DNA from: Minisyncoccota bacterium
Lineage (GTDB): Bacteria > Patescibacteriota > Microgenomatia > PFEM01 > JAFGMK01
Direction: 5' to 3'
Assembly (NCBI GenBank): GCA_016927565.1
Contig: JAFGMK010000006.1
Location: 37,942-101,941 of the forward strand
DNA length: 64,000 nt
Shown here: piece after piece, positions 11,995 to 29,122 of the stretch
Layout: every line of letters begins with the position of its first letter
Numbering within the stretch: position 1 is the stretch's first letter
Notes under the pieces: generated by a model
Database searches by the model: none
The model's input: the letters and a program-made list of their open reading frames with translations, nothing else
What the model was told of the DNA's origin: nothing
Translations under genes and position numbers: made by a program

Positions 11995-13524
11995 TTAGTA
12001 AAACTGATCTTTAGGTCTATATTGAAGCGCCTCAGCCAAATGGATAATTTTAATCTTTCCTTCCCCGGCCAAATCAGCAATGGTGCGGGCAATTTTAATG
12101 GTTTTAAAGTACGCCCGGGCAGAGAGATTCATTTGAGAAACAGCCTGACGAAGGAGACTAAGACAGTCTTTATCCAAGAGACAATGTTTTTTAATATCTT
12201 TGTTTTTCATTTCCGAGTTGGCTTTAATCTTTGTCTTTTTAAATCTTTGCCCCTGCTGATCCCGAGCAACCTGAACTCTTTTTTGAACGCTTTTTGAAGA
12301 TTCACTAATGACATTATCGCTGGTTAATTTTTCCACCGAAACAGCGGGCACTTGGACATGAAGGTCAATCCGGTCGAGGATCGGGCCGGAGATCTTTTTT
12401 TGGTAGCGGATAATCTGACCGGGCAAACACTTACATTCTTTTTTATCACTTCCAAGCCAACCGCAGGGGCAGGGATTCGAAGCGGCAATCAAAATAAACT
12501 CAGCCGGATAAGTAACTGTCCCTGCCGCTCGAGAAATGGTTACCCGACCATCCTCCATGGGTTGTCTCAGAGATTCCAAAACCGACCGGGGGAATTCCGG
12601 AAATTCGTCCAGAAACAGAACCCCCCGATGAGCCAAAGAAACCTCTCCCGGCCGGGGCCGGGCACCACCGCCGATTATTCCAACCTGGGAAACCGTGTGA
12701 TGAGGTGAACGAAAAGGACGGTTTTTAACAATTGCACTTTTCTCGGGTAAATTACCGGTAATCGAGTAAATTTTAGTTATCTCTAAAGCCTCTTCTTCGG
12801 TTAAATCAGGCAGAATTCCCGGCAAAGACCGGGCTAACATTGTTTTCCCGGAACCCGGTAAACCTTTTAGAAAAAGGTTGTGGCCTCCAGCGGCTGAGAT
12901 TTCCAGAGCTCTTTTGGCAAACTCTTGGCCCTTGATTTCTGAGAGGTCAAATTCGGCCTGAGGATCAGAAACCAAGGAAGAAAAGTCGGTTTTGGGAAAG
13001 GGCTTAACTTTTTTAAAACCGGAAAAATGACTAAAAAGCTTAACTAGATTAGGAATCGGGTAAACCTTAAGTCCGCCAACAACAGCGGCTTCAGAAGCAT
13101 CAACTTGGGGTAAAAAAACTTTTTTTAGCTTTTTCTTCTTGGCCAAAAGTGCTAAGGGCAAGACGCCGTTAGTGTGTCTTAAGGAGCCGTCGAGAGAGAG
13201 TTCGCCTAAAAAGAAGGTTTCTTTTAAGTTGGCGGCCATCTGGCCAGAGGCAATTAGGATTCCCACTGCCAAGGGTAGGTCATAAGCCGGGCCTTCTTTG
13301 GGCAGATTGGCGGGAGCCAAATTGATTGTAACCCGGTGGTCGGGAAACTTAGCTCCGGAGTTTCTAATAGCCGTAAAAACTCTTTCCTTGGCTTCTTCGA
13401 TGGCTTTGTTGGGCAGACCAACAATTTTAAATGAGGGAAAGCCTTTGGAGGAGACATCAACCTCAACCTCAACCAAAACCCCATCCAAACCAACGGTGGC
13501 GCCGGAAAAAACTTTGGCAAGCAT
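11995..13524 (-). CDS. comM: YifB/ComM family Mg-chelatase-like AAA+ ATPase
   Basis: N-terminal Lon-protease-like domain (MLAKVFSGATVGLDGVLVEVEVD), Walker A GLPGSGKT, and a C-terminal ChlI-like region. 509 aa. Confidence 0.9.
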   Translation of the reverse strand: MLAKVFSGATVGLDGVLVEVEVDVSSKGFPSFKIVGLPNKAIEEAKERVFTAIRNSGAKFPDHRVTINLAPANLPKEGPAYDLPLAVGILIASGQMAANLKETFFLGELSLDGSLRHTNGVLPLALLAKKKKLKKVFLPQVDASEAAVVGGLKVYPIPNLVKLFSHFSGFKKVKPFPKTDFSSLVSDPQAEFDLSEIKGQEFAKRALEISAAGGHNLFLKGLPGSGKTMLARSLPGILPDLTEEEALEITKIYSITGNLPEKSAIVKNRPFRSPHHTVSQVGIIGGGARPRPGEVSLAHRGVLFLDEFPEFPRSVLESLRQPMEDGRVTISRAAGTVTYPAEFILIAASNPCPCGWLGSDKKECKCLPGQIIRYQKKISGPILDRIDLHVQVPAVSVEKLTSDNVISESSKSVQKRVQVARDQQGQRFKKTKIKANSEMKNKDIKKHCLLDKDCLSLLRQAVSQMNLSARAYFKTIKIARTIADLAGEGKIKIIHLAEALQYRPKDQFY

Positions 13525-13545
13525 TAGTTTTTATGATAGCAAAAG
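13465..13545. repeat. copy A (genuine) of the comM 5'-end/promoter repeat
   Basis: AACCTCAACCAAAACCCCATCCAAACCAACGGTGGCGCCGGAAAAAACTTTGGCAAGCAT...TATGATAGCAAAAG covers the comM start codon and first ~20 codons. It recurs at 16175, 21465 and 22448. Confidence 0.85.
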
Positions 13546-13603
13546 GAGCTGTGAAGGGCAAAGCCTCAAGGGTTTAAAGCTAAAACATCTGAACGGGATT
13601 GAT

Positions 13604-14224
13604 TCATTTAAGAACATATCTTTCTATCTGAGAAACTACTAGCTCAGGTGTTAAACGAGTGGTGTCAATTGTCTCTGAATGAAAGTGTTTCCTGCCTATT
13701 TCGACAATTACTGCCTCCATAGCCATAAATCTTTCAGGCGCAGCAACAATCATTAAATCTCTCTCTGTGACTAGATCTGTTCTATCTTTACGCCTTTGCT
13801 CAAGCCGCTGCAGCCTTGCTTCTAGACTAGCAGTTAAAATAAACGAGTGATCAAAGAGGGGGTGTTGCGGCAACATATCAACTAGAACCTCGGGAATTCT
13901 TGGCGTTCCAGATACCGTGTGGAAAGCTAACGATCTTAAAATTATTGTCGAGTCCTGAATTGTATTAACTTCGGGCCATGTAAACATTTCCAAATCTGCC
14001 ATTAAAGCAACCGCATATAGGTTTCCTAAAATTTCTGGACTGAAGGAATCACTTCTACCAATCGAATCGGCTAATAATCGGATTATGTTTTCTTCTTGGC
14101 AAATACTTTTTCTTTGGACTATCCAGGGAGCTGATTGTCGGGAGGCAAAACTATTAGCTATTAAAGATTTACCAGCAAGATCCATTCCATCTAAATGGAT
14201 GAATTTAGCTCTTTCGGAATTCAT
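13604..14224 (-). CDS. thymidylate/dNMP kinase-like P-loop protein
   Basis: FIHLDGMDLAGKS fits GxxxxGKS in the position of the dTMP kinase P-loop. The LID-like and DR.x regions are weakly alignable to Tmk. The assignment is tentative. Confidence 0.45.
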   Translation of the reverse strand: MNSERAKFIHLDGMDLAGKSLIANSFASRQSAPWIVQRKSICQEENIIRLLADSIGRSDSFSPEILGNLYAVALMADLEMFTWPEVNTIQDSTIILRSLAFHTVSGTPRIPEVLVDMLPQHPLFDHSFILTASLEARLQRLEQRRKDRTDLVTERDLMIVAAPERFMAMEAVIVEIGRKHFHSETIDTTRLTPELVVSQIERYVLK

Positions 14225-14609
14225 TTAAGAAAACTTTGGTTTGGGGCACAATTTTTGAGGGCAACTTATTAAGAGAAAACCAGCGAACCTCCACTGTCTT
14301 ATCTAATGGCTTCGGGTTTCCGCTTAGATAATAAGATCTAAATCTTAGGTATATTTTTGCCTTTTTTTGATTAACTTCGGAAGATACTAGAAAATGATTC
14401 TTGATTCGAATATTGGTTTCCTCTAAAACTTCACGCGCCAAGCCGGAAGTTATTGTCTTATCCTTAAGCTCTATTTTCCCTCCGGGAATAACCCAAAAAC
14501 CAGGAAAAGTATCTTCATCTTGGCCACGCTTAACAAGTAAGACCTGGTCATCCTTAAAAATAGCGGTTGAAACATTAATTACAAATTGGGTGGCTTTTTT
14601 GTTTTTCAT
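14205..14609 (-). CDS. NUDIX hydrolase
   Basis: Nudix box GGKIELKDKTITSGLAREVLEETNI matches Gx5Ex7REUxEExGU. Confidence 0.75.
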   Translation of the reverse strand: MKNKKATQFVINVSTAIFKDDQVLLVKRGQDEDTFPGFWVIPGGKIELKDKTITSGLAREVLEETNIRIKNHFLVSSEVNQKKAKIYLRFRSYYLSGNPKPLDKTVEVRWFSLNKLPSKIVPQTKVFLNEFRKS

Positions 14610-14807
14610 CGGTGAAAATTATAATTTATTCAAAGGCAAGGTTACAGTCATTATTTTCAAAATTTCCCTTAAAGTAAACTATTTTATTTAATTAACTAAT
14701 TTATTTGTTTTTAAAACTGTATCATTAGCAATGTCCTAATGCTATTTATTACTTAGGCAATGTGTAAATAAGCTGCCCGTTATGATGCCTCTTGCTATAA
14801 TACATCC

Positions 14808-15368
14808 ATGGGTTATAAACGAATAAACTTCATTCTTGAAAAGAGCTTATATGCCCAGCTCAAGAAGCGCGCCGCAAAACAAGGTGTCCCAATTTCAAAA
14901 ACAGTTACTACTTGGATACAGAATTCCAATATTAACTCCGCTAAGATATCTCAACAGAAAATCACCGGAAGATTAACTACCTACAATTTCTGGGTTGATA
15001 AAGAAACCTATAAATTCCTAAAACAAATTTCGGGTGTAAAAAATGCTCAAATAAGCACCATTTTAAGATCATTAATATTTAACAATCTCAATCAAATAAA
15101 AGGCAGAAATGCCTGCGAAATTATTAAAATTAAAGCCGATAGATTATGGCTTGGCGGCCAGTTAATGCCCTTAAAAAAATATCTTTACTCCAACCTGGAT
15201 AGTCTAGATACTGACTCTCGACTTATACTTGCCCGGGTCTACTTAGAGCTGGGGATGTTTGACGAAGCGAAGCGCATAGGACGAGATGTGGCTAATAAGA
15301 AAAATAATCAGATTAACTCCATTAAGGCAAACACCATCCGGAGCAAATCCGAAGCTCTGCTTTATTAA
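14808..15368 (+). CDS. ribbon-helix-helix (CopG/Arc-like) domain protein, probably two RHH repeats
   Basis: N-terminal KRINFILEKSLYAQLKKRAAKQGVPISKTV has the RHH pattern. A second similar segment sits at residues ~60-95. TATAAT lies 6 nt upstream of the ATG, so the mRNA may be leaderless. Confidence 0.4.
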   Translation: MGYKRINFILEKSLYAQLKKRAAKQGVPISKTVTTWIQNSNINSAKISQQKITGRLTTYNFWVDKETYKFLKQISGVKNAQISTILRSLIFNNLNQIKGRNACEIIKIKADRLWLGGQLMPLKKYLYSNLDSLDTDSRLILARVYLELGMFDEAKRIGRDVANKKNNQINSIKANTIRSKSEALLY

Positions 15369-15409
15369 CTTTGGAAAACAAGAAAATTAGCCCAATGGCA
15401 ATATGATTT

Positions 15410-16039
15410 TTATTTTTTCATGCCTAGGAGCCGGTCCTTATCGATAGCGGCGTCATTTTCCATTAATTCACTCCACCACCACTCATTGGGATTGCTTTCT
15501 TTCATCAGGTAAACAATTTTTTTGGCAGAAGCAGTATTCATAGCCGGAACACGATCGTTAAAGTCAGACTCAAACCATTTTTGGGCCAGTTTATGTCCTT
15601 GCCACATCATTACCCACTCGGTGTAGATCTGGGTCAGGCTGTCGGCGTCTTTGACAATCTTGGCAATTCTGGTTTCTTGTCTTTCATACTCATCAAAAAG
15701 GGATTTGATGTTTTGGCCAAATTTGATACCTTCGACCTGTTTAGTTAAGGCTTTGTTTTCATCGATTTTGACATAATGCTTGGCGATAAAACCGATTTCG
15801 CCGGTCCTGGCTTCAACCAGATCATGGAAAAGAGCCATGGAAACACACTTGAGGCCGTCTTTATGGGATAAACCCTCCATCTGGGATAAAACATAAGCAA
15901 TAACACTACATTGATAGGAATGAGAAGCAACCGTATCAAAGGCATTACCCAGATGATACTGATGTGATCTTGGCATCAGCATTAAAAGACCCGATTGCTG
16001 AATCAAATGGAAAATTTTGGTTATCTCACTCTTAGTCAT
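15410..16039 (-). CDS. HD-domain phosphohydrolase, YfbR-like 5'-deoxynucleotidase family
   Basis: HSYQCSVIAYVL...ALFHDLVEARTGE is an H...HD metal-binding signature with YfbR-like spacing. Confidence 0.65.
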   Translation of the reverse strand: MTKSEITKIFHLIQQSGLLMLMPRSHQYHLGNAFDTVASHSYQCSVIAYVLSQMEGLSHKDGLKCVSMALFHDLVEARTGEIGFIAKHYVKIDENKALTKQVEGIKFGQNIKSLFDEYERQETRIAKIVKDADSLTQIYTEWVMMWQGHKLAQKWFESDFNDRVPAMNTASAKKIVYLMKESNPNEWWWSELMENDAAIDKDRLLGMKK

Positions 16040-16089
16040 AAGGTGAAATATACTATATCACAAAAATAACTCCTGATATTCCCTTTCTA

Positions 16090-16254
16090 ATTTTCTCCAA
16101 ACTTTGCTGTTTTGGTTCTTTATCTTGGAAATCTTTTTTTTAATTTCAAAGTGGCAGGTTAAATTGTGATCATAACCTCAACCAAAACCCCATCCAAACC
16201 AACAGTGGCGCCGGAAAAAACCTTTGAAAGCATTTGAGGTTATGATAGCAAAAT
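16090..16254. repeat. copy B of the comM 5'-end repeat (extended ~165 bp unit)
   Basis: Core 16175-16254 is near-identical to comM codons 1-20 plus ~25 bp upstream. An extra ~85 bp left arm is shared with copy C. It has an internal inverted repeat CATAACCTCAA...TTGAGGTTATG. Confidence 0.8.
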
Positions 16255-16306
16255 AGAGGGAGCAGAGCAAAGACTTGGAGGTGTAAATTTGACTTTTGAT
16301 TTTAGA

Positions 16307-16561
16307 CTAATAAATGATTGGGTTTCCTTCTGGGTCGTAAGTTAGAAATGGCCATTCAGTGCCAAGATGGCTTAATTCTTCCACTTCTCGGACAGGGTAT
16401 TGCCTATCACCCACCGTGATCCGGCCCTCTTCTAGACAACCTCCCTCGGCTAGGCTGGTAGCCTGACCAGCACTAAGAACAACCCCTTGAGGAGACCAGC
16501 CTCTTCGCAGGTCTTCTTGGAGCTTTTCACGAACTTGAGCACATGTTAATCGTTCGCACAT
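16307..16561 (-). CDS. hypothetical protein, G/E/R-rich composition atypical for the window
   Basis: 84-aa ORF inside the repeat-bounded segment 2. No motif recognised. Confidence 0.3.
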   Translation of the reverse strand: MCERLTCAQVREKLQEDLRRGWSPQGVVLSAGQATSLAEGGCLEEGRITVGDRQYPVREVEELSHLGTEWPFLTYDPEGNPIIY

Positions 16562-16647
16562 GATTAATTTATTAAGTAAATTAGTTGAAATAACAGTAAT
16601 ACTATTTTAAACTAGTTTTACTATAACTAAATAATTTTTCAGCTGAA

Positions 16648-17187
16648 ATGGAGTATAACACAGAAATAGCCTTTAGCAAAGACTTATGGGGTGAAATCGT
16701 TGAGGTTGAGTTTTGCCCCCAAGAAACACTTCCTTCTGAGGAGGAACTTCCTTTAACTGCAGTTTCTTGCATTGCTGTTACCGATGATAATAGAAGGGTT
16801 GTTTTGGCTAAAGTGCCCCGAGGTTGTGATCTGCCGGGTGGCCATATTGAAAGCGGCGAGAAGCCGGAGGACGCTCTAGCCCGTGAGCTAGAGGAAGAGA
16901 CCGGAGCTCGGTTTCAGGATAAACCGCACCTTATTGGGATTCGGAGAATGACTAAGAAGGCTGAGACTGTTCGAGTTCAACAATATCCGTTGGTAAGCGG
17001 GATTGCGGTATACATAGGAAGAGTAGTGTTGGATAAAAGCTTTGTTCCTCAGAAAGAATCATCGGAGAGAATTTTGGTCGATGTTCAAGAGATTGATCAG
17101 ATTCATCACCACTGGAGCCGGCAAGAGCAGGAGATTTTTGCTTATGCTAAAGAACGCTACCCTGATTACTTTCCCGACAAAATTTAA
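16648..17187 (+). CDS. NUDIX hydrolase
   Basis: Nudix box GGHIESGEKPEDALARELEEETGA. 179 aa. Converges on the 1368-aa gene with a 4-nt overlap. Confidence 0.75.
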   Translation: MEYNTEIAFSKDLWGEIVEVEFCPQETLPSEEELPLTAVSCIAVTDDNRRVVLAKVPRGCDLPGGHIESGEKPEDALARELEEETGARFQDKPHLIGIRRMTKKAETVRVQQYPLVSGIAVYIGRVVLDKSFVPQKESSERILVDVQEIDQIHHHWSRQEQEIFAYAKERYPDYFPDKI

Positions 17188-20100
17188 AGGCTGAATTTTT
17201 CTTTAATTATTGCAGCTGCTTTTTTGGCTCCTTCTAGACTTATTCGGGGTGATATCTCCGACATACGAGCAGCGTAGGTCGCTTGATCAGTAAGAGCTTG
17301 CTGAATCCCAGCATCAAGCCGGTCATTGTCTAGTCTGGAAAGAGGCAGGTTTTGGCCTAAGCCATGCTGTTCAACCAAAGCAGCATTATATTGCTGATCA
17401 GCGTTGGTAGTAATGGTAATAATCCCCCCCCTGCCCCTTTTCATAAAGGGATAAAGAGTACCGCTTCCACCCTGGCAGAGCAAGACATCGGCGTGGCTGG
17501 CGAGTTCAGGAAGATTGGCAAATTTTACGGGAACAAAGTTTTCCGGCAAATCAGCTGGTAATTCGGCATCGGCAGTAGTAACCATTATCATTGCCTCCGG
17601 TCTTTTTTGGGCAACTGCAAATAAGGCTTGATAAAGTTTGGGCTCTTTAATGCTCCCAAAACTACCAAAAATGATTTTTTTACCTTCTAATTTAGCCTGA
17701 GCAAGCTTAGCAACCGCTTCTTTGGTTGCCCCTTCGTCAACATACTGATTAATAATGGTTTCTGGCTGAATTGAACCGACGTAAGCCACCTCATTACCAT
17801 TGACCAGCTCTCGAAGCCGGGGGTCAAGATTAAAATCAGGGCCGACTCCCTGATTGACGAAAGCTTCATTATCGGCAATTATGGTCAGATCGGCAGCTTC
17901 CATATGTTGAAACCAGCTTGGATTATCGGTAGGCGGCTCGCCGATGTATTGTCTATGCGCTTCTTGATAAACCTGACGCAACTTAGGATCAAGCGGACGG
18001 TAGTACTTATCAGCCAATCTTTCTGCCTCAGGACCAAGTTTATGAATAAACGCCTCGGAGGTAAAACCAACATTGCTAAGATTGGTGATTGACACCGTGG
18101 GAACACCAGCCATTTTAGCAGCCATTAAAAGAGGGACATTATGATCTGAAAGAACAAATGGTGGCGGATTTTCTTCCAAGCGCTGGGCAATACGGACAAC
18201 ATTCCCGGCCATTTCTTTAACACTAAATTCTCCTTTGATTAAATGACCAGGATGGTAAAAATAATCATCAGATCTCTCAACTGTTACAGGCTTGCCTGGA
18301 GTTTCAAATCCCCGGCCAAGGTCAAAGACTTGCCGGCCACTTTCAGACCCACACATATTAGTTGGCACTCCGGCTCGGGCAAGTTCTAAAGCGACCTCAA
18401 GAGGTCGACCAGTATGAGCTGATACTCCAGGCAGATAACCCACCTCAACTGGCCTTGCCTGGCTTTTTTGTTCGCTAGCGATTGGGACTTCCGGATCTTC
18501 TTTTTCTTTTTTAGCCTGACTAAGCCTTTTCTCCTCGGCTCCCAACTCGTAGGCTGCATCAACTAAACTTGGCCAGACTTGATAGGTCCTAAGATAGCGC
18601 CGAACCCCCTTGCGGACTGACCGAATCTCTTTTGGCAAGGGCTGATTTTCGAGATCTTTCTCAACAGCTTCAATTGCTCCCTCAGGAAAGGCGTGAAGAA
18701 AACTTTCTAACTCATCAATAACCTGATCAGGCTCCGCAGAATCTATTTGCCTGGCAAATTCTACTTGTGCATCCAACAAACCTCTGAGTCTTTTTATTTC
18801 TTCAAGTTTTGCATGATTGGCCTCAAATGTTCGGATCGAAGCTTGGAGAGACTTGTCATCAGCAGGGGCAATTCCTAAAGCCTGCTTGGCTTCATTTTGA
18901 AGGCTAGGGCTACCATCAATAGCTTTAGAAATTTTGAATTGTTCCCTGGCGTAATTGTTGCTAAAAGCACCAACCATTTCGGCACCAAAAGCATCACCAC
19001 CACCCTGACGGGCAGCTCGCTGGTGCATTAGAGGCCTTTCTCGGCGGATAACCCGATTTGGATCAGCTGCGGTAGCTGCTTGAGCTCGAATAGCGCCGCT
19101 AAGATTATAGTCAAATATGCCCCCTAATGGAGTCGGGATTCCCTTAATCGCCTCACCTGAAAAAGTAATATTACCAAGATCAAGCTTACTGGCTTCTTGC
19201 CAATCTAAACCTTCTTTAAAATGGCGTTCCTCAGTCCACAGGGCGGCAATTGGCTGGCGGCGGACAGCCGCTTCAAGTATTTGAGGGAGCAATCGGTAGG
19301 CTTCGCTGGTTGACACCTGACGGAAGGCACCAGTTTCAGGATCAAAAATATTATAAGTACTAAAAGCGCCGCTATTTCTTTCAGTCATAATCTGAGTGGT
19401 TAGTTCCAGAGTATCCTTTACTAAAGAAATGGGGTTGCCGGTATGGCCAGTGTATCGGCCAATAGTGACTTGAGTTTCTGGATCTTCAAACCAGGCCGCT
19501 CTTTCAGCCAAGATATCGTGCTGATCTGTTCTTATAGTTCCTTCTTCGGTTCTAGTAAGAGTCCGATAGCGCTGATCGTCTTCATTAATGGTGATCGTTG
19601 TTTCCTTCAAGGGAACTCCTCGTTTACCAGCCTCATACGCCGCTGCTAAATAGCCAAAATTCTGAGTGCCGGCAATGCCTCCAAGCTCAGCTAAGGGATC
19701 AGCAAATTCAAAACTTTCTAAGTCCTCTCGAAGTGGCGCCTGAAGTCGGTCTTTTAATAAAGCCCGACTAAGCCAAAATTGATATCTTCTCTGTTTTTCG
19801 GTAAGGTCAGGATCTGCTTTTAGTTCTTGGGCAACTTTTTGGGCAAGTCTTTGAGCGAACCCAGTATTTTCCCTAACTCGGTAATAGCCGACTTGATATT
19901 TTTTAGCAACTTTGGCGATCTGTCTGGCAGCTTCATCATCCCAAGAATCATCAATAATAAAAACACCCACCTCACCTTGGTAAGCACTTTTTTGTCTAGA
20001 CTCAGCAAAATCTTCCAAAAATCGGTCAATTAATTCCGGGTTTTGTAAAGACTTGATACCAACCATTTGGAGCTTAGTCTCCCGAGGCTCTTCCTCCATT

Positions 20101-21290
20101 CGTTCTAAGTAACCTTCAATAAATGCTTTTACCCTGTCTGGTTCATGCATTTGAGGATCTGGCAGGGGCGGACTTTCGTACTTTTTCTTAAGAGCTTCGA
20201 CCTGATCTGGTCTGGCCGCCCACTTTTTTTTCCGAGGCTCGGTCCAATATTGGTCATACAAATACCATTCCTCAGCTCGTCTTTGCCAGGGAACTACTTC
20301 TTTGAGAAGGCGAATGCCCCTGGTTTCTTCACCAGCGACAAAGCCAACAAATTTATCAACGGCTGCTTTTACACCACCCGTTTTAATAGAATCATAATCA
20401 TCAGTCGCATCCTCAATCCCCCTAATGGCCACCTCATTTAGCAAAACAAGGCTTTGGGCTGAAAGACCCTTAATGGCAGTTTTTTCAGTAGGGTTTTTTC
20501 TGGTGATTACCGGGATATATTGACCTGAATCTTGATCTAAAACAATATCAGTGGCTGAGTTATAAACACCACTATATAAAGCTTCAACTAACTGGAGGCG
20601 GTTTTTGTAGACATTGAGGTGAAAATCGGGGTCACTACCTTCTTCAAGAATTCCGTGAGTATTTCTGGTTCCATTTGGCCACAGATCAACAAACTCCCCC
20701 TCTATCTCTGCTTCGGGATTAACATCATTTATCAGGCCAGTTAATCCCCGGTAGCTTAGGCCAACAGCGCTTTGACTATCCGCCAAAATTACTTTTTTAG
20801 CTTTGGCGACTCCCATTTGTCTTAAATAGCCTCGATAACGGTCATAAAAATCCGGGCCATGAGCAGTTCCCCTAACCAAGGGATTAAATTGGCCGTTGTA
20901 ATGGAGATATCTTGTTCTGCCGGGATCAATTTCTTGATATTCAGCTACTTTTTCCCTGAGTTTTTGGGCAGCAATATGAATCGGCAAACCATCTCTGGCC
21001 AAGGTCAAAGCAAGACTATCTGGTTCGTTTTTGAGCTTGGTTAATACTTTATCGGCTAAGAGGATATATACCGGAGCAACAACTTCCCTTGTCTGGGAGT
21101 AAACCTCTTTTGCCAAGGCGCGGAAGCGCTCCTCTTGTTCTGGTGGAACCTTCCTTTCTTTGACCAGGTGATCGAGATACTGACCAAGCCTATCCGAATC
21201 CTGCTCGTGTTCCTGGCCTGTTTCTTGGTCGGCAATTGGTTTGCTTGGCTGATCCTCGATTGGCTTAACCCCGTTAGCACCTTCTCCCAT
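17184..21290 (-). CDS. 1368-aa multidomain protein: unknown N-terminal ~880 aa with a possible GT-A-like segment, plus a C-terminal GT1-family (MGT/UGT-like, GT-B fold) glycosyltransferase domain
   Basis: The C-terminal ~480 aa has a GT1 N-lobe motif (YLPGVSAHTGRPLEVALELARAGVP) and a C-lobe nucleotide-sugar motif (HADVLLCQGGSGTLYPFMKRGRGGIITITTNADQQYNAALVEQHGLG). A mid-protein segment (VGVFIIDDSWDDEAARQIAKVAKKYQVGYYRVRENTGFA) weakly resembles a GT2 N-terminal region. The protein is rich in A/E/R/Q/G/P, unlike the neighbouring proteins. Confidence 0.65.
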   Translation of the reverse strand: MGEGANGVKPIEDQPSKPIADQETGQEHEQDSDRLGQYLDHLVKERKVPPEQEERFRALAKEVYSQTREVVAPVYILLADKVLTKLKNEPDSLALTLARDGLPIHIAAQKLREKVAEYQEIDPGRTRYLHYNGQFNPLVRGTAHGPDFYDRYRGYLRQMGVAKAKKVILADSQSAVGLSYRGLTGLINDVNPEAEIEGEFVDLWPNGTRNTHGILEEGSDPDFHLNVYKNRLQLVEALYSGVYNSATDIVLDQDSGQYIPVITRKNPTEKTAIKGLSAQSLVLLNEVAIRGIEDATDDYDSIKTGGVKAAVDKFVGFVAGEETRGIRLLKEVVPWQRRAEEWYLYDQYWTEPRKKKWAARPDQVEALKKKYESPPLPDPQMHEPDRVKAFIEGYLERMEEEPRETKLQMVGIKSLQNPELIDRFLEDFAESRQKSAYQGEVGVFIIDDSWDDEAARQIAKVAKKYQVGYYRVRENTGFAQRLAQKVAQELKADPDLTEKQRRYQFWLSRALLKDRLQAPLREDLESFEFADPLAELGGIAGTQNFGYLAAAYEAGKRGVPLKETTITINEDDQRYRTLTRTEEGTIRTDQHDILAERAAWFEDPETQVTIGRYTGHTGNPISLVKDTLELTTQIMTERNSGAFSTYNIFDPETGAFRQVSTSEAYRLLPQILEAAVRRQPIAALWTEERHFKEGLDWQEASKLDLGNITFSGEAIKGIPTPLGGIFDYNLSGAIRAQAATAADPNRVIRRERPLMHQRAARQGGGDAFGAEMVGAFSNNYAREQFKISKAIDGSPSLQNEAKQALGIAPADDKSLQASIRTFEANHAKLEEIKRLRGLLDAQVEFARQIDSAEPDQVIDELESFLHAFPEGAIEAVEKDLENQPLPKEIRSVRKGVRRYLRTYQVWPSLVDAAYELGAEEKRLSQAKKEKEDPEVPIASEQKSQARPVEVGYLPGVSAHTGRPLEVALELARAGVPTNMCGSESGRQVFDLGRGFETPGKPVTVERSDDYFYHPGHLIKGEFSVKEMAGNVVRIAQRLEENPPPFVLSDHNVPLLMAAKMAGVPTVSITNLSNVGFTSEAFIHKLGPEAERLADKYYRPLDPKLRQVYQEAHRQYIGEPPTDNPSWFQHMEAADLTIIADNEAFVNQGVGPDFNLDPRLRELVNGNEVAYVGSIQPETIINQYVDEGATKEAVAKLAQAKLEGKKIIFGSFGSIKEPKLYQALFAVAQKRPEAMIMVTTADAELPADLPENFVPVKFANLPELASHADVLLCQGGSGTLYPFMKRGRGGIITITTNADQQYNAALVEQHGLGQNLPLSRLDNDRLDAGIQQALTDQATYAARMSEISPRISLEGAKKAAAIIKEKFSL

Positions 21291-21364
21291 TATATAATGC
21301 TAGCTCATTAGCTGAAAAATTAAAATCCCTACTTTCTCGAACCCTATCATAAACACAAGCCCCG

Positions 21365-21544
21365 ATATTCCTTTTCAGGTTTTTTCCAAATCTCACTCTT
21401 TTGATTCTTAATCTTAGGAATCCTCTTTTAAACCTCAAAGTGGCAGGTTAAATTGTGATTCATAACCTCAACCAAAACCCCATCCAAACCAACGGTGGCG
21501 CCGGAAAAAACCTTTGAAAGCATTTGAGGTTATGATAGCAAAAG
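21365..21544. repeat. copy C of the comM 5'-end repeat (extended unit, near-identical to copy B)
   Basis: Core is 21465-21544. Left arm 21378-21464 matches 16090-16174. Confidence 0.8.
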
Positions 21545-21671
21545 AATGCTAAGGACACAAAGATCCTAAGACGTGAACTCAAATCAATCTAAGGGCGGAG
21601 AATCGCTAAAGGAAAGGAGTTGTGTTATTATGACGGGGTAAAGACTATTTTAAAACATTTGATTTTTTAAT

Positions 21672-22418
21672 ATGAACTCTAAACCCCAAAAGGAGGTTTC
21701 TAAGTCAGGAATACCAATTTTGCGCCATCAGCAAGCAGCTAAACCGCCTAAAAAAACTTCCTATCCTACCGAAGAATACCTCAAAGTTTTGGATAAACAC
21801 ATTAAAAAATATATTGGGGAGGCAAAAACTGTTTTTCATGAATTGATTTCGGAGTATGTCCACTTGGATGTTTACTTTATTGAGGCTAGTAAAAAAAGAA
21901 ATTTTCATACCCTAGTGACCGCAGGAATGAGCCTTTTGCCAATGAATGTTCCTCCCGGATTAGAAAGTCATCGCTTTGCCGAACTTTTAATTTGTCTACC
22001 GGCTAGCTGGCCTTTGAGTAAAGAAGCTTTTAAAAAAGAAGCTAATTACTGGCCGGTAAGACAACTTAAGATGTTGGCACGCCTGCCCCATGTTTACCGA
22101 ACCTTTCTTTACATTGGTCATACTGTGCCCAATGGTAACCCTCCCAAGCCTCTTGCTAATAATACCCGCTTTGATTGTCTGCTTTTACTCCCACCAATTC
22201 TTTTCCCCAAAGAATTCAGCTCTCTTAAAATCAACAAAGATAAAACAGTTCATTTTTACGCTCTAATCCCTCTCTACCCTGAAGAAACTGCCTTTAAACT
22301 AGACCAGGGAACGTCTAAGTTATTCCGGAAGTTGGACCAGGCCCGAGTTACCGAGTTGGTAGATATTAACAGACCCAGTTTGATTAGCAAAAAAAATAAC
22401 AAAGGGCAGGCAGCATAA
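21672..22418 (+). CDS. SUFU-like (suppressor-of-fused family) domain protein
   Basis: FHTLVTAGMSLLPMNVPPG, WPVRQLKMLARLPHVY, GHTVPNGNPPKPLANNTRFDCLLLLPP and FYALIPLYPEE match the conserved blocks of bacterial SUFU-family proteins. These are recalled from memory and were not searched. Confidence 0.5.
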   Translation: MNSKPQKEVSKSGIPILRHQQAAKPPKKTSYPTEEYLKVLDKHIKKYIGEAKTVFHELISEYVHLDVYFIEASKKRNFHTLVTAGMSLLPMNVPPGLESHRFAELLICLPASWPLSKEAFKKEANYWPVRQLKMLARLPHVYRTFLYIGHTVPNGNPPKPLANNTRFDCLLLLPPILFPKEFSSLKINKDKTVHFYALIPLYPEETAFKLDQGTSKLFRKLDQARVTELVDINRPSLISKKNNKGQAA

Positions 22419-22447
22419 ACTTAAAGAAAACCTTTTAAAGAGACAGC

Positions 22448-22525
22448 AACCTCAACCAAAACCCCATCCAAGCCAACGTGGCGTCGGAAAAAACTTTAGC
22501 CAGCATTTGAAATCATGACAGCAAA
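22448..22525. repeat. copy D of the comM 5'-end repeat (most diverged, 1-nt deletion)
   Basis: AACCTCAACCAAAACCCCATCCAAGCCAACGTGGCGTCGGAAAAAACTTTAGCCAGCAT...CATGACAGCAAAAA. Confidence 0.75.
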
Positions 22526-22596
22526 AAAAGAGAGGGAGAGTAAAATTCCTGAGATGTAAAGCTAAACTACCCTAAGGGTGTAAACTGATAAAAATA

Positions 22597-22895: not shown

Positions 22896-23336
22896 TTAAA
22901 TTATCCTTTTTTTAATCCTATGGCTAAAAAAATAGCCGGTCACCCCAACCGCCCCAGTTAAAAAACCCAAAGGGCAGACAATAGTTGAGGTTAGAAAAAA
23001 GGTAACATGAAGGGCTTCGGCGAAAAAATGAAGGATTTGGATTTTTTCAGTGATTATGGCTAAGGCATAAAGCAGATTGTGGAAAACGACGCCGGGGAAA
23101 AAAGCCGCCGCCGAAACCCCACTAAGAAGCAGGAATTTTTTTAGGCGATTTTTAAACTTTCTTCTTCTAATGACTATGATTAAGCCAAAACCCAAAAAGG
23201 AAAAAACCGCCAACGGCAGAAGAAACAAAAAAGTGCCTCGGAATAATTCTCTGATTGGTTCAAGAAAAAATTGCGCCACCCCAAAAATAAAACTCAAAAG
23301 CAACCACCAGAACAACCGCGGTATTTTTTGCTTCAT
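22896..23336 (-). CDS. small integral membrane protein (4 predicted TM helices)
   Basis: 146-aa hydrophobic ORF, 11 nt downstream of the 220-aa secreted-protein gene. Probably co-transcribed with it. Confidence 0.4.
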   Translation of the reverse strand: MKQKIPRLFWWLLLSFIFGVAQFFLEPIRELFRGTFLFLLPLAVFSFLGFGLIIVIRRRKFKNRLKKFLLLSGVSAAAFFPGVVFHNLLYALAIITEKIQILHFFAEALHVTFFLTSTIVCPLGFLTGAVGVTGYFFSHRIKKRII

Positions 23337-23347
23337 CTTAAAAAAGC

Positions 23348-24010
23348 TTAGCGAAACTGACCAAAGCCCGGGCCGACCGGCGTACGATATTGCAGGCCGT
23401 GACTACCGGCACAAGAATCATTCTCAACCTTTTGAATAACAGCAAATTCATCCCAGATTACCGGCCCAAGCTCCCGACGGTTTTTCTCATACCACATTCC
23501 ATTCTCTTTATAAGCGCCACTAGGCGCTGCTGCAATTTTGACAAAATAATTCCATTGGCAAGTCTCGCCGTCCTGTTCATACTCACCGGACTGATGGTTG
23601 GTCAACCAGGCACCGGATCCAACATAGCCGGCAAAACCATAATGACGGTCAAGCAAGCCATCACCATCACAATCTCTGTTTGAAAGCCAGGCGTCATTCC
23701 ACTTCATAGCCAGCCTGACGTCCTTATAAGGTTGACACCAGGCCGCATTCCGGTAGGAATCACAATAAAAACCATTGAATGAGCGGGCTTGGTAGTTATA
23801 ACCCCACCCGTCATAACCGGAAGTAATCGGATAACCGTCACTAGTCAAAAGATCCCCTTGTTGAATAGTTTTACAGGCAGTAAATTTTCCTAAAACCCTG
23901 GAAGGAACAGCCCGAGGCACAAGCGGCAGCAGGGCTACATTAAAAGCCAATACAATTCCGCCGACTACTAAAGCCACCGGCAAAACCGTATGTAAAATTT
24001 TATTTTCCAT
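23348..24010 (-). CDS. secreted or membrane-anchored Gly/Trp/Tyr/Asp/Cys-rich protein
   Basis: N-terminal TM/signal peptide (VLPVALVVGGIVLAFNVALLPLV). The mature part has about 8 Cys and DCDGDGLLD. Its GC-rich codon usage is atypical for the window. Confidence 0.45.
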   Translation of the reverse strand: MENKILHTVLPVALVVGGIVLAFNVALLPLVPRAVPSRVLGKFTACKTIQQGDLLTSDGYPITSGYDGWGYNYQARSFNGFYCDSYRNAAWCQPYKDVRLAMKWNDAWLSNRDCDGDGLLDRHYGFAGYVGSGAWLTNHQSGEYEQDGETCQWNYFVKIAAAPSGAYKENGMWYEKNRRELGPVIWDEFAVIQKVENDSCAGSHGLQYRTPVGPGFGQFR

Positions 24011-25234: not shown

Positions 25235-25798
25235 ATGGAAGACTCCCGTTTAAACAAGGTTCGCGATTTTTACAAAAATCACCACCGATTACCCTCTTAC
25301 TCGGAAATGCTAAGATTGTTTAAACTGGCTTCTAAGAATGCGATTTATAAAATTGTTAAAAAATGGCAGGAAACCGGCCTGGTAGAAAAAATCAACCATA
25401 AACTGGCTCCCACCAAAGATTTTTTCCGCCTGCCATTTTTTGGTTTGGTCAAGGCCGGCTTCCCCACCGGCGCTGACGAAGACCACCGCTTCTTAAGCCT
25501 GGAAGATTATTTAATCGATAAACCCCAAGCCTCTTTCTTACTAACGGTTGACGGCGATTCTCTCTCCGGCATCGGCATCTTACCGGGAGACTTGGCCATC
25601 ATCGAGAAAAGAACCGAAGCCCGGACAGAAGAGATTGTCTTAGCTTTAATCGACAATCATTGGAGCCTAAAAATTCTCCGGCGGCAAAACGGCCGGCTCC
25701 GGCTGGAATCAGCCAATGAAAAGTATCCCCCCCTCTACCCCAAAGAAGATTTACAGATCTTCGGAGTTTTAAAAGGAGTAATTAGAAAAATTAAATAA
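25235..25798 (+). CDS. lexA: LexA-like repressor (wHTH plus S24 peptidase)
   Basis: N-terminal wHTH. VKAG/FP carries the Ala-Gly cleavage site, GDSLSGIGI carries the Ser nucleophile, and LKILRR carries the Lys. Confidence 0.7.
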   Translation: MEDSRLNKVRDFYKNHHRLPSYSEMLRLFKLASKNAIYKIVKKWQETGLVEKINHKLAPTKDFFRLPFFGLVKAGFPTGADEDHRFLSLEDYLIDKPQASFLLTVDGDSLSGIGILPGDLAIIEKRTEARTEEIVLALIDNHWSLKILRRQNGRLRLESANEKYPPLYPKEDLQIFGVLKGVIRKIK

Positions 25799-25803
25799 AA
25801 TCC

Positions 25804-27036
25804 ATGTTTCAAATCCATCCCTGGCCCAACGCCATTCTTCATCTTGACGCTGACGCCTTCTTTGCCTCAGTGATGCAGGCCGTCAACCCGAATTTAAAAG
25901 GAAGAGCAGTGATTGTCGGCAGGGAAAGAGGCATCGCAACGGCAGTTTCTTATGAGGCTAGAGGATGGGGTGTTAAACGGGGAATGAGACTGAACGAGAT
26001 CAAAAGGACTTGCCCCCATTGCCTTTTGATAGACTCGGATTATGAACTTTATCAGCTTTTTTCCCAAAAAATATTCAAACTTTTAAGAGAATTTTCTCCT
26101 GCGATTGAAGAATATTCAATTGACGAAGGCTTTGCTGATCTTAAAGGCCTGAGACGGCCACTTCGGGCCAGTTACCGTCAAATCGGGCAAGAAATCAAAG
26201 AAAAAATCGAAAAATCACTGGGAATTACAGTTTCAGTCGGCATTTCTTTGACAAAATCGCTCGCTAAACTGGCTTCCTCTTTCCAAAAACCCTCCGGCCT
26301 GACCGTAGTTGACGGGTTAGGTCTGGAAAAATTCCTTTCTCAAATCCCTTTAAAAAAAGTTTGGGGAATCGGCGAACAAACCAGCGCCTACCTGGAGAAG
26401 CTGGGATTGATCAGCGCCCTGGATTTAGCCCTTAAACCGGAAAGTTTTATCAGCGCTTATTTGATTAAACCCCATCTTGAAATCTGGCATGAGCTTCGGG
26501 GAGAACAAGTTTACCTTTTAAACACCCACCCCAAAACAACCTATCAGAGTATCTTAAAAAGCGAGACTTTCCGGCCGGCCACTAATGAACCCCATCTGCT
26601 TTGGGCCAGATTGTTAAATAATATTGAAGCGGCCTTTACCAAGGCCCGGCACTATCAATACTCGGTTGGCCAGGTGTCTCTTTTTTTAAAGAGTCAGGAC
26701 TTTATTTATCATACCAGCCAAGTCCGGCTTCTGGAAAAAGCCGCTTATCCTTTTTTAATCAGAAAGGAATTAAAAAAAAGTTTTAACGGCCTTCTTTCCC
26801 GGCAAACTCTTTACCGGACTACCGGTTGTTGCTTATCAAATCTTCAAGATAACCGTCAGTCTCAATTGAGTTTTTTCCCCCCAAGTCAGGCCAAACTTAA
26901 TAAAGCAGTTAAATTTTATCCGCTATATGAAAACAAAAAAATTGATTTTGGCACTAGTCTTTTTGATCCTCAACTCGGAAAAAGAAGAAAAAAACAACCC
27001 CGGACCCGAATCCCTTTTTTATCTCTTCCCGCTTGA
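25804..27036 (+). CDS. Y-family DNA polymerase (DinB/UmuC-like)
   Basis: ILHLDADAFFASV is the Y-family catalytic motif. 410 aa. Starts 5 nt after the lexA stop, so the two form an operon. Confidence 0.8.
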   Translation: MFQIHPWPNAILHLDADAFFASVMQAVNPNLKGRAVIVGRERGIATAVSYEARGWGVKRGMRLNEIKRTCPHCLLIDSDYELYQLFSQKIFKLLREFSPAIEEYSIDEGFADLKGLRRPLRASYRQIGQEIKEKIEKSLGITVSVGISLTKSLAKLASSFQKPSGLTVVDGLGLEKFLSQIPLKKVWGIGEQTSAYLEKLGLISALDLALKPESFISAYLIKPHLEIWHELRGEQVYLLNTHPKTTYQSILKSETFRPATNEPHLLWARLLNNIEAAFTKARHYQYSVGQVSLFLKSQDFIYHTSQVRLLEKAAYPFLIRKELKKSFNGLLSRQTLYRTTGCCLSNLQDNRQSQLSFFPPSQAKLNKAVKFYPLYENKKIDFGTSLFDPQLGKRRKKQPRTRIPFLSLPA

Positions 27037-27081
27037 CTTTTCCAAACCTTATCCTCCTGATATGAAATAAACCTTGACAAA

Positions 27082-28095
27082 TTATTTCTGATTCAAAGCC
27101 CGACGGATAATTCCCACCAGACTGTTAAAGTGGCATTGGTCATAATCGCTTCGGTAAAAACCGCCTTTAAACATGGGGGCTAATTTTTGCAAACTGGAAA
27201 GAACTAAACCAATCTTTAGGGCCCGATCAAACAAATCATCCTGAATCCGTTTTGATTTTTTAACTTCTTTAATTAATTTTTTTCCCAGCTTGATATTTTC
27301 CCAAGCCCGGGTATAAAAACTAGCCACATCCAAGCCCCAATCAAGAAGGGGCAAACAAGACCAATAGGCGCTTTCCCAATCAAGCAAAACCGCTCTTTTG
27401 GTCCCAAAGAAGACATTATTGGGAGCCAGGTCGCCGTGAATTAAAACGCCCGGGGCTTGTTTGGCTTTGAAGAATGATTCTTTAAACTTTTTAAAAAAAA
27501 GAATGACAGTTTGGCCATCAGATTTCAGCCAATTCAAGTCGGAAACTTCTAGAGCCGGATAAAGAGTTTCAAGGTGCTCCCGAATCCGACTTTCGACTTC
27601 GTTGATAATGACTGATTTTTGCTTATTAATCAAAAGATAGGGTTTTAGCTTAATGGGAAGGTCTGACTGTTTAATTTGCCAAAGTTGACGAAGAGCATGG
27701 CCGAGAGCAATCATCTTTTTGGGTTTAAGCGAGGAGATGTTTTCTTCCCGACAAATTAGTCCCTGATTATCTCTAAAATACTGACCAACGTACCAAAAAA
27801 GGTTTTTTATTTGGCCGGAGTCAAAGATCCGCCGGGCCAGATTACTCTCCCGGGAAAGCCATTTTTGGATTAATAATTCTTTTTGGAACCTTCGCAATAG
27901 GCCGGGCTTATCACTAAAAGCGCCTTTGAAAAATAATTTTTTACCCTCGGAATTGATAAGTGGAAAATAAACAAAGCGGGGGGTCTCTTTAGTCAAACAC
28001 CGGCGAAGCTCAATTCGATCGGGCTGCCAGCTTCTTCTTTCAGTTAAAGAAAGAATCACTTTTAATCTTTGTTGATACTCGGTTTCAGATAACAT
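27082..28095 (-). CDS. phosphotransferase family protein (APH/choline-kinase-like kinase fold)
   Basis: The catalytic loop region VLIHGDLAPNNVFF...LLDWESAYW matches the HGDxxxxN...D motif of PF01636-like kinases. Confidence 0.55.
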   Translation of the reverse strand: MLSETEYQQRLKVILSLTERRSWQPDRIELRRCLTKETPRFVYFPLINSEGKKLFFKGAFSDKPGLLRRFQKELLIQKWLSRESNLARRIFDSGQIKNLFWYVGQYFRDNQGLICREENISSLKPKKMIALGHALRQLWQIKQSDLPIKLKPYLLINKQKSVIINEVESRIREHLETLYPALEVSDLNWLKSDGQTVILFFKKFKESFFKAKQAPGVLIHGDLAPNNVFFGTKRAVLLDWESAYWSCLPLLDWGLDVASFYTRAWENIKLGKKLIKEVKKSKRIQDDLFDRALKIGLVLSSLQKLAPMFKGGFYRSDYDQCHFNSLVGIIRRALNQK

Positions 28096-28114
28096 TTTTT
28101 TAAGACAAAATCTC

Positions 28115-29122
28115 CTAAACTAAAGCGGCTCTTAACATCTTGATCAGGGTATTAAAATGCCGCCGGTCATAGTCTGTTTGACAGATCCCAAACTTAAACA
28201 TCGGGGCAATTTTTTGCAGAATGGAAAAGACCAAACCAATGGTCAGGCTTTTGGGGAAAAAAGGCTCTTTTGCCCAAGGCGATTTTTTTACTTCGGCGAT
28301 TAACTCTTTTCCCAACTCAGGCCGTAACCAGGCCCGGGTGGAAAAATTAGCCACATCAATGCCCAAAGCCAAAAGGAGATTATCGGTCCAACAAACCCAT
28401 TCCCAATCAAAAATAACCAGCTTATTTTCTTTAAAAAAAACATTGTTCGGCGCCAGGTCGCCATGGACTAAAACTCCCCGGCCATTCTGAAACTTGACGA
28501 TCTCTTTTTTTAGGCTTTTAAAAAAGCCTAAGATTGCTTTTTCATCTGCCTCGCTCCAATCCAGTTTAGTTTTACCAAAAGCTCCTCTTAGGGTTATCAG
28601 ATAACGCCGCGTCTTGGTGATTAATCTTTCAAAGGTCTTAATATTTTTCGGGGCTGATGATAACTCTTTAAAAAGATTCCGGGGGATTTGACTTTGTTTA
28701 ATTTGCCACAGTTTTTTTATCTCCACCCCCAGAGCGCGCATGTGTGCCAACGTCAAAAGGGAAATATCCTCATCCAAACAAACAATACCATTCTTACCCG
28801 AATAATAAGGACCAATATACCAAAAAACCCTGCCTTCTTGGGAAAAATCAGCTACAGGCCTAACCGGCCCGCCTTGCCTGGCTAACCAAACCTGAGCTGC
28901 CATTTCCTTCCTGAGGTTGTTACCAAGAGACTGGCCGCCAATCAAACAGCCTTTATAAAAAAATTCTTTTCCGGCAGAGTCGGTGAAAGGAAAGTAAAGA
29001 AAGCGGGGCTTTTCCTTTTTAAGAACTTTATTAACTTGAGAATAATTTATCTGCCAACCTTTTTTTTGAGCTAAGTCAATCAAAAAGTCGAGGTTTTTTT
29101 GCTGATTCTTTTGGGAAAGCAT
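28115..29122 (-). CDS. phosphotransferase family protein (APH-like), tandem paralogue of the 27082-28095 gene
   Basis: VLVHGDLAPNNVFF...IFDWEWVCW. Same length and overall collinearity as its neighbour. Confidence 0.55.
   Translation of the reverse strand: MLSQKNQQKNLDFLIDLAQKKGWQINYSQVNKVLKKEKPRFLYFPFTDSAGKEFFYKGCLIGGQSLGNNLRKEMAAQVWLARQGGPVRPVADFSQEGRVFWYIGPYYSGKNGIVCLDEDISLLTLAHMRALGVEIKKLWQIKQSQIPRNLFKELSSAPKNIKTFERLITKTRRYLITLRGAFGKTKLDWSEADEKAILGFFKSLKKEIVKFQNGRGVLVHGDLAPNNVFFKENKLVIFDWEWVCWTDNLLLALGIDVANFSTRAWLRPELGKELIAEVKKSPWAKEPFFPKSLTIGLVFSILQKIAPMFKFGICQTDYDRRHFNTLIKMLRAALV

Follow-up and report, generated by a model that had tools for sequence, protein, structure and literature searches.

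The SuFu superfamily was proposed by Zhang, Iyer and Aravind (PMC3482391), from the gene neighbourhoods of its members, to provide immunity proteins for nuclease and other polymorphic toxins, and the motifs of their Imm-SuFu superfamily are listed as GxS, E, E and DxxR (Table 3 of that work). The prototype of the bacterial Imm-SuFu proteins is the SUFU protein of Neisseria gonorrhoeae (PDB 3k5j), which belongs to MafB/CDI-like loci and whose family is encoded beside the HNH-fold toxin NGO1392 (PMC3113570). We report an analysis of a SUFU-domain protein gene (21672..22418, + strand) in a stretch of 64,000 nucleotides, referred to here as the window, from contig JAFGMK010000006.1 of a Minisyncoccota bacterium (assembly GCA_016927565.1, positions 37,942 to 101,941). 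A preliminary, sequence-only reading of the window had taken the product for a SUFU-like protein and had pointed out that comparative genomics ties this family to toxin immunity, which agrees with the literature cited above. We find that the gene encodes an intact, stand-alone bacterial SUFU-fold protein, that no toxin gene is detected among the open reading frames (ORFs) scanned around it or beside the relatives examined, and that the repeats on either side of the gene are copies of the 5' end of comM.

The ORF runs from ATG to stop and encodes 248 amino acids. Its single Pfam-A match is PF05076 (SUFU; E=2.2e-46, 158.3 bits against a cutoff of 25), which spans residues 63-235 and profile positions 3-172 of 172 and so covers the whole domain. 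The AlphaFold2 model of the protein is confident (pLDDT 91.6, pTM 0.87) and strongly resembles no known structures other than SUFU domains, from bacteria and from animals, the fold being the alpha+beta fold of the SUFU N-terminal domain. The superfamily motifs are found as G85-M86-S87, E104, E205 and D231-x-x-R234; in an alignment of the clade to which the protein belongs G85-M86-S87, E104, E205 and R234 are invariant and D231 is not, though it is present in our query. The four conserved blocks on which the sequence-only reading had relied, namely FHTLVTAGMSLLPM, WPVRQLKMLARLPHVY, GHTVPNGNPPKP...FDCLLLLPP and FYALIPLYPEE, all occur in the translation, and its assignment to the SUFU family is borne out by the Pfam search and by the structural matches.

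Family and fold are, in this way, demonstrated. The protein is an ordinary, fresh member of a known family and the assignment is already public, since NCBI lists an identical sequence, on a contig of 150,754 bp, as 'MAG: suppressor of fused domain protein [Candidatus Pacebacteria bacterium]'. No NCBIfam model is specific to the protein, and the defence models of PADLOC give no significant match to it. It is predicted to be cytoplasmic and has no hydrophobic N-terminus. The GC content of the gene (0.39-0.41) is similar to that of the surrounding DNA, so that composition speaks neither for nor against recent transfer. A promoter scan of the DNA that precedes the gene finds no sigma-70-like site on the + strand and returns no more sites than chance would give.

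Comparison with the described systems places the protein at some distance from each of them. It shares 21-24% identity with 3k5j, which a profile built from the clade reaches at E=0.0017; 3k5j, a protein of 183 amino acids, has no counterpart of the roughly 60 residues (SxSGxPIxRH..., together with a helix) that extend the window protein at its N-terminus, and whereas the 3k5j family has a toxin neighbour, neither the window protein nor its clade was seen to have one. Identity to the N-terminal domain of eukaryotic Suppressor of fused (PDB 1m1l, 4kma) is 13-16%, and the window protein has neither the SUFU C-terminal domain nor any GLI/Hedgehog context. The polyimmunity proteins of PMC3482391 offer a closer parallel in one respect, in that SUFU domains of the same clade are fused to SUKH, Imm33, Imm11, Ank, LRR and TPR modules and no toxin gene was found adjacent; polyimmunity proteins of such architecture are reported there to occur usually without adjacent toxin genes. 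The window protein differs from them in consisting of one domain and in being encoded outside any immunity-gene array, beside NUDIX, HD and glycosyltransferase genes.

An Imm-SuFu gene in the canonical position lies directly downstream of a toxin gene with a variable C-terminal toxin domain and is co-directional with it. Here the upstream gene is divergent, as the sequence-only reading had observed when it placed the SUFU gene outside the site that immediately follows a toxin C-terminus, and its product ends in a GT-B glycosyltransferase. Among the ORFs between about 6.4 and 30 kb of the window, which were scanned against Pfam, there is no toxin, toxin-trafficking or secretion-system gene; the genes present encode PMT_2 and GT2 glycosyltransferases, a ComM/YifB-like ATPase, two NUDIX proteins, an HD_3 phosphohydrolase, a nitroreductase, UmuD and UmuC, two APH-family kinases and an ABC ATPase.

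The search for a toxin was extended to the neighbourhoods of relatives in the 80 best genome loci, in which genes were called, and in five contigs from metagenomes or metagenome-assembled genomes that carry clade members. The SUFU gene is single-copy in each of the 80 loci except one, L083, which has two matches. Its flanking genes vary in size, strand and spacing, and when the 470 proteins encoded by the four genes on each side were clustered, no family was found at a consistent position beside SUFU across taxa; the sole synteny is that of a Paenibacillus/Priestia group. The Pfam tallies of immediate neighbours are led by ArsR-type helix-turn-helix proteins (6/60) and GH43 (5/59), the remainder being metabolic or housekeeping families seen once or twice, and no toxin family stands among the families listed (25 of 90 on one side and 25 of 76 on the other, so that singletons may hide). 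The ten large co-directional upstream genes whose position would best suit a toxin encode a MutS_V-like protein, EutB (twice), an LRR protein, an AprA-type methyltransferase, a histidine kinase, a prephenate dehydrogenase, an ABC-2 permease, a GH2 enzyme and one unannotated protein of 892 residues. No toxin-linked neighbour was found in the five metagenomic contigs either.

A toxin neighbour was accordingly found beside none of the roughly 85 relatives examined, and there is no toxin linkage that recurs across taxa. The sequence-only reading had proposed that the neighbourhoods of homologues be inspected for toxin domains and had stated that homologues consistently encoded in housekeeping contexts would refute it; none of these domains was detected, genes of metabolic or housekeeping type stand in their place, and such contexts are largely what these loci present. 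Because no toxin gene lies beside the SUFU gene of the window or those of its relatives, the protein can at most be an orphan immunity-type binder. Of the immunity proposal, then, the canonical role next to a toxin is not supported, and an orphan version of it survives through the immunity-domain fusions of the relatives, to which we now turn.

Of 185,579 species genomes, at least 553, from many phyla, carry a relative of the window protein, always 43-53% identical to it. None is close: the nearest, at 45-53% identity, belong to Planctomycetota, Paenibacillus, Verrucomicrobiota, Bacteroidota, Shewanella, Chloroflexota, Deinococcales and other groups. An exhaustive HMMER scan at E<=1e-30 resolves the clade into 574 clusters at 50% identity. 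The distribution is patchy, and the clade appears to be accessory and horizontally moving in character. Multidomain proteins of about 320-1773 amino acids make up some 44 of the best 150 cluster representatives, and the SUFU domain is recognised in 44/44 of these. Their immunity-type partners are SMI1_KNR4/SUKH-1 (3 proteins), SUKH_6 (2), Imm11 (1) and Imm33 (1); the repeats to which they are joined are ankyrin with LRR (1), TPR (3) and Sel1 (1), and further partners are DUF3239 (3), DUF4919 (2), DUF7832 (1) and GYF_2 (1). Examples of these architectures are P0175 (TPR, two SUFU domains, DUF7832 and Imm33), P0135 (Ank, LRR and SUFU) and the pair P0161 and P0167 (SUKH-1 and SUFU).

These fusions match the polyimmunity signature, and orphan immunity-type binding is for that reason the best hypothesis for the window protein; the binding-scaffold fold and the patchy, accessory clade also favour it. 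The SUFU fold is a protein-binding scaffold, and the window protein would be an immunity-type binder whose cognate toxin is not encoded beside it. It would neutralise, through stoichiometric binding, a toxin domain delivered by other cells. We put forward this orphan, polyimmunity-type role, toxin binding included, tentatively, as a reading that stops a little short of being probable. The protein adds little to the published knowledge of SUFU proteins, of how they fold and of the part in immunity proposed for them; its clade makes a good test case for the idea that orphan SUFU proteins protect against foreign toxins.

Several further observations weigh against toxin binding. The immunity role assigned to SuFu proteins in PMC3482391 and PMC3113570 derives from genomic context, not from experiment, and a search of the literature turned up no experiment that puts a SUFU-type immunity protein to the test. 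Recognised immunity-type domains occur in just 8-10 or so of the 44 multidomain relatives, and the commonest fusion partner (8/44) is an unannotated, membrane-anchored domain of about 220 amino acids with a hydrophobic segment. Conservation is also unusually high for an immunity protein: in the clade alignment, which draws on Paenibacillus, Planctomycetota, Verrucomicrobiota, Bacteroidota and others, 37 columns are invariant and a further 22 nearly so, and identities across phyla are 43-53%. Polymorphic immunity proteins would be expected to diversify rapidly and to vary at the binding interface, and neither is seen in the clade. This conservation, the single local copies, the synteny and the lack of any detected toxin linkage suit a conserved cellular partner as well as they suit a conserved toxin.

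The same features are those expected of a conserved cellular adaptor or chaperone that binds an endogenous partner, as eukaryotic SUFU tethers GLI, in which case the immunity label would be void for the whole clade. The one copy per locus, the stable gene order of the Paenibacillus group and the metabolic or housekeeping-type neighbours (EutB, prephenate dehydrogenase, HisF-like, GH43, ArsR) would all be natural for such a protein, as would the remote fold similarity of the model to secretion chaperones and the fact that the invariant residues E57, D66, H140 and H150 have no identical aligned residues in the toxin-linked Neisseria protein 3k5j. An adaptor sits less well with the patchy distribution (about 185,000 species, of which at least 553 have a relative), with the failure to find a conserved operon partner in 80 loci, with relatives fused to SUKH, Imm11, Imm33 and Ank/LRR immunity-type domains, and with the position of the window gene in an apparently inserted segment instead of a core neighbourhood. 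We consider this explanation somewhat unlikely. Nevertheless, since the clade is large (at least 553 species), slowly evolving and made of stand-alone proteins for which toxin linkage was not found, the label 'immunity protein' that attaches to PF05076 needs to be used with caution.

The pattern of conservation could also be read as that of a catalytic or metal site formed by H56, E57, H64, D66, H140 and H150, the protein then being an enzyme or a metal-binding protein. All six residues are invariant in 39 clade sequences from several phyla, and among the multidomain relatives E57, D66, H140 and H150 are each at least 90% conserved; the absence of identical aligned residues in 3k5j, given above, would fit a function peculiar to the clade. 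In the wider, multidomain set, however, H56 and H64 fall below 90%, and no enzyme fold was matched by the model, whose significant structural neighbours are all SUFU domains without known catalysis. We regard an enzymatic or metal-binding role as highly improbable.

The orphan binder that we favour has no partner gene beside it, and the locus offers two candidates that might supply one. The first is the giant gene upstream (17184..21290, - strand), which encodes a protein of 1368 amino acids with a C-terminal GT-B (GT1/GT28-like) glycosyltransferase and an N-terminal region of about 950 residues in which no domain is recognised. The giant and SUFU genes are divergent, as the sequence-only reading had stated, and 381 nt separate their start codons. 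The second candidate lies downstream, where a two-gene unit (22896-24010, - strand), whose family is not recognised, runs convergently towards the SUFU gene. The first of its products has 220 amino acids, with a signal anchor at the N-terminus and a domain rich in Cys, Trp, Gly and Asp (23348-24010, - strand), and the second has 146 amino acids and about four membrane-spanning segments (22896-23336, - strand). A terminator-like hairpin is found near this unit, at 22612-22596 (- strand).

What speaks for the SUFU protein as the cognate immunity or regulatory partner of one of these local proteins is their proximity, next to which stand the large region of the giant protein that has no assigned function and the signal-anchored, Cys/Trp-rich protein and four-span protein of the downstream pair. 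Polymorphic toxins carry their toxin domain at the C-terminus, and it is at the C-terminus that the giant protein has its GT-B glycosyltransferase. Its similarity to Pfam and PDB entries is limited to GT-B glycosyltransferases, at about residues 1188-1362; the first 947 residues, in which the sequence-only reading had suggested looking for a toxin fold, have no Pfam match even at E<=10 and no PDB similarity. Only one homologue of the giant protein was found among 5.8 billion proteins (56% identity; locus L087, 254-4366, at a contig end), and upstream of it lies the start of a helix-turn-helix transposase-like gene and no SUFU gene. The earlier suggestion that the SUFU protein might serve a different partner is, as applied to the giant glycosyltransferase, not supported, given the lone homologue without a SUFU neighbour and the lack of any N-terminal similarity. 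Moreover, a related large neighbour occurs in 0/80 SUFU loci, a copy of the comM 5' end lies between the giant and SUFU genes and assigns them to different segments, and the downstream pair is convergent and lies beyond another such copy. To a partnership with either candidate we give scarcely any credence.

The copies of comM just mentioned are, to our mind, the most useful new fact about the locus. The window holds one intact ComM/YifB-like gene (11995..13524, - strand; 509 amino acids), in which Pfam recognises ChlI, Mg_chelatase and Mg_chelatase_C over residues 20-503. Its genuine 5' untranslated region (UTR) and first 20 codons form what we call copy A (13465..13578, - strand; ATG at 13524), whose translation begins MLAKVFSGATVGLDGVLVEVEVDVSSKGFPSF and which alone is joined to full-length comM. 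The three other copies are stubs on the same strand. Copy B (16056..16287; ATG at 16233) has 20 comM codons followed by MITI and a stop. Copy C (21345..21577, of which 21464-21577 bounds the SUFU gene; ATG at 21523) likewise has 20 comM codons, preceded by about 55 nt of comM-like 5' UTR. In B as in C the comM codons give MLSKVFSGATVGLDGVLVEV, after which the reading frame goes on with unrelated residues up to a stop. Copy D (22426..22560, of which 22447-22560 bounds the SUFU gene on the other side; ATG at 22506) is decayed: it reads MLAKVFSDAT, then a 1-nt deletion, then GLDGVLVEVAVSLKGF, with about 28 comM-like codons in all, and begins 8 nt past the SUFU stop codon.

The four copies share an 80-nt core at 84-91% identity, and a 30-nt core, for which chance alone would give 0 occurrences, is found 4 times in the window. 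An extra 115 nt in copy C, common to copy B only, abuts the start of the giant gene; altogether B and C have 199 nt in common at 86% identity, copy B lying just 5' of the HD_3 gene. The repeats are thus copies, on the minus strand, of the 5' UTR and first 20-28 codons of comM, and comM is the apparent target whose 5' end recurs. In public metagenomes an exact scan with the 30-mer core gave 0 matches.

An RNA gene was considered as another identity for the repeats. Rfam gave no match at gathering thresholds anywhere in the window, apart from which there is a chance miRNA match around the gene (E=1.8); the stem of copy C is lost in copy D, and the fold z-scores are +0.8 and +0.2. With no Rfam match and no conserved stem, this identity was dropped in favour of an origin from the comM 5' end.

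The sequence-only reading had described the SUFU gene as lying alone in a 'repeat-bounded segment'. It is indeed the only ORF of at least 50 amino acids between copies C and D, and the repeats do flank it; what needs revision is the framing, because the repeats derive from the 5' end of comM, and it is their identity as comM stubs that accounts for such segments. Three of these lie in tandem, with sizes of 1, 2.7 and 5.3 kb. In segment 1 (13.6-16.05 kb) lie an ORF for a P-loop kinase-like protein, a NUDIX gene, an ORF of 186 amino acids and the HD_3 gene. Segment 2 (16.3-21.3 kb) comprises an ORF of 84 amino acids, a NUDIX gene and the gene for the 1368-residue protein, and segment 3 (21.58-22.42 kb) the SUFU gene alone.

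The nearest described parallel is that of the dusA-associated islands, whose integration site is the 5' end of a target gene, to which they bring a substitute for the end displaced (PMC4482086). As there, the direct repeats at our locus come from the 5' end of the target, comM itself is intact and the displaced stubs lie distal to the cargo. From this arrangement of an intact comM followed by displaced 5'-end copies we infer serial insertion as the route by which the SUFU gene would have been horizontally acquired: three segments would have entered in succession at the comM 5' end, each leaving a copy of that end, and the SUFU gene would be the lone cargo of a segment of about 1 kb, the outermost of the three. 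Serial insertion at comM agrees with the want of close relatives of the SUFU protein. The stubs suggest a way in which a reduced-genome bacterium of the candidate phyla radiation (CPR) may gain accessory genes.

There are differences from the dusA islands, and some of these count against the proposed insertions. The comM segments are very small and in tandem, and their repeats are 80 nt long at 84-91% identity as against attachment sites of about 20-28 bp. No integrase or other recombinase was detected among the Pfam matches of the ORFs at 6.4-30 kb, and a crude regular-expression search for Tyr and Ser recombinase motifs was negative in all 73 reading frames of at least 120 amino acids in the window. 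The 80 related comM loci are too distant (51-68% identity, and no synteny with the window) to serve for an empty-site comparison; among the window genes, homologues in these loci are limited to comM, generic ABC, GT2 and PMT_2 genes. Weak similarity to the locus's own comM 5' end is seen upstream in 5/73 of the related loci, and a stub array in none. In one of them, L094, the first 21 nt of comM (start at 2219) are exactly duplicated about 600 nt upstream, at 1594-1614, and this may be what is left of a small insertion at that position. A more general version of the idea, which strikes us as quite unlikely, makes the comM 5' end a cargo-capture and attachment site at which very small segments of one to four genes, themselves without a recombinase and each bounded by an 80-nt copy of that end, are stacked in tandem like a cassette array by a recombinase acting in trans, with SUFU as a single-gene cassette.

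The remaining cargo of segments 1 and 2 (13604-16039 and 16307-17187) is nucleotide-related and comprises the P-loop kinase-like ORF of 206 amino acids (IHLDGMDLAGKS), the two NUDIX genes and the HD_3/YfbR-like phosphohydrolase gene. The two NUDIX proteins match the PADLOC candidate family PDC-S07 at 1e-14 and 1e-8, which probably reflects generic NUDIX similarity; the cargo could have nucleotide-pool or defence roles. Farther along the window, at 25235-29122, two paralogous phosphotransferase genes of the APH family stand in tandem behind a UmuD-like (Peptidase_S24) and UmuC-like (IMS) pair. Such genes are surprising in a reduced CPR genome and are frequently carried on mobile elements.

Some details of the relatives complete the description of the clade. 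The membrane-anchored fusion domain of about 220 residues is N-terminal in P0136, P0141, P0146, P0147, P0150, P0151 and P0185 and C-terminal in P0258. It has no Pfam match; hhalign ruled it out as a SUKH, SUFU or DUF4919 domain and gave a weak similarity to DUF3239 (E=0.006, probability 6%). Many clade members from Planctomycetota (P0008, P0014, P0034, P0049 and P0086, for example) carry an MJ0042-type zinc ribbon (PF13717/PF13719) N-terminal to SUFU, and in P0075 a methyltransferase domain occupies this position. P0005 and P0044 (L085, 2639-3451, and L086, 3818-4573), two of the closest relatives, have a C-terminal zinc ribbon. Their loci conserve a gene order with Roadblock/LC7 and three unannotated genes, to which L086 adds a nearby thymidylate kinase gene and a weak CDC48_2 match, and these archaeal-looking surroundings hint that the clade spans both domains.
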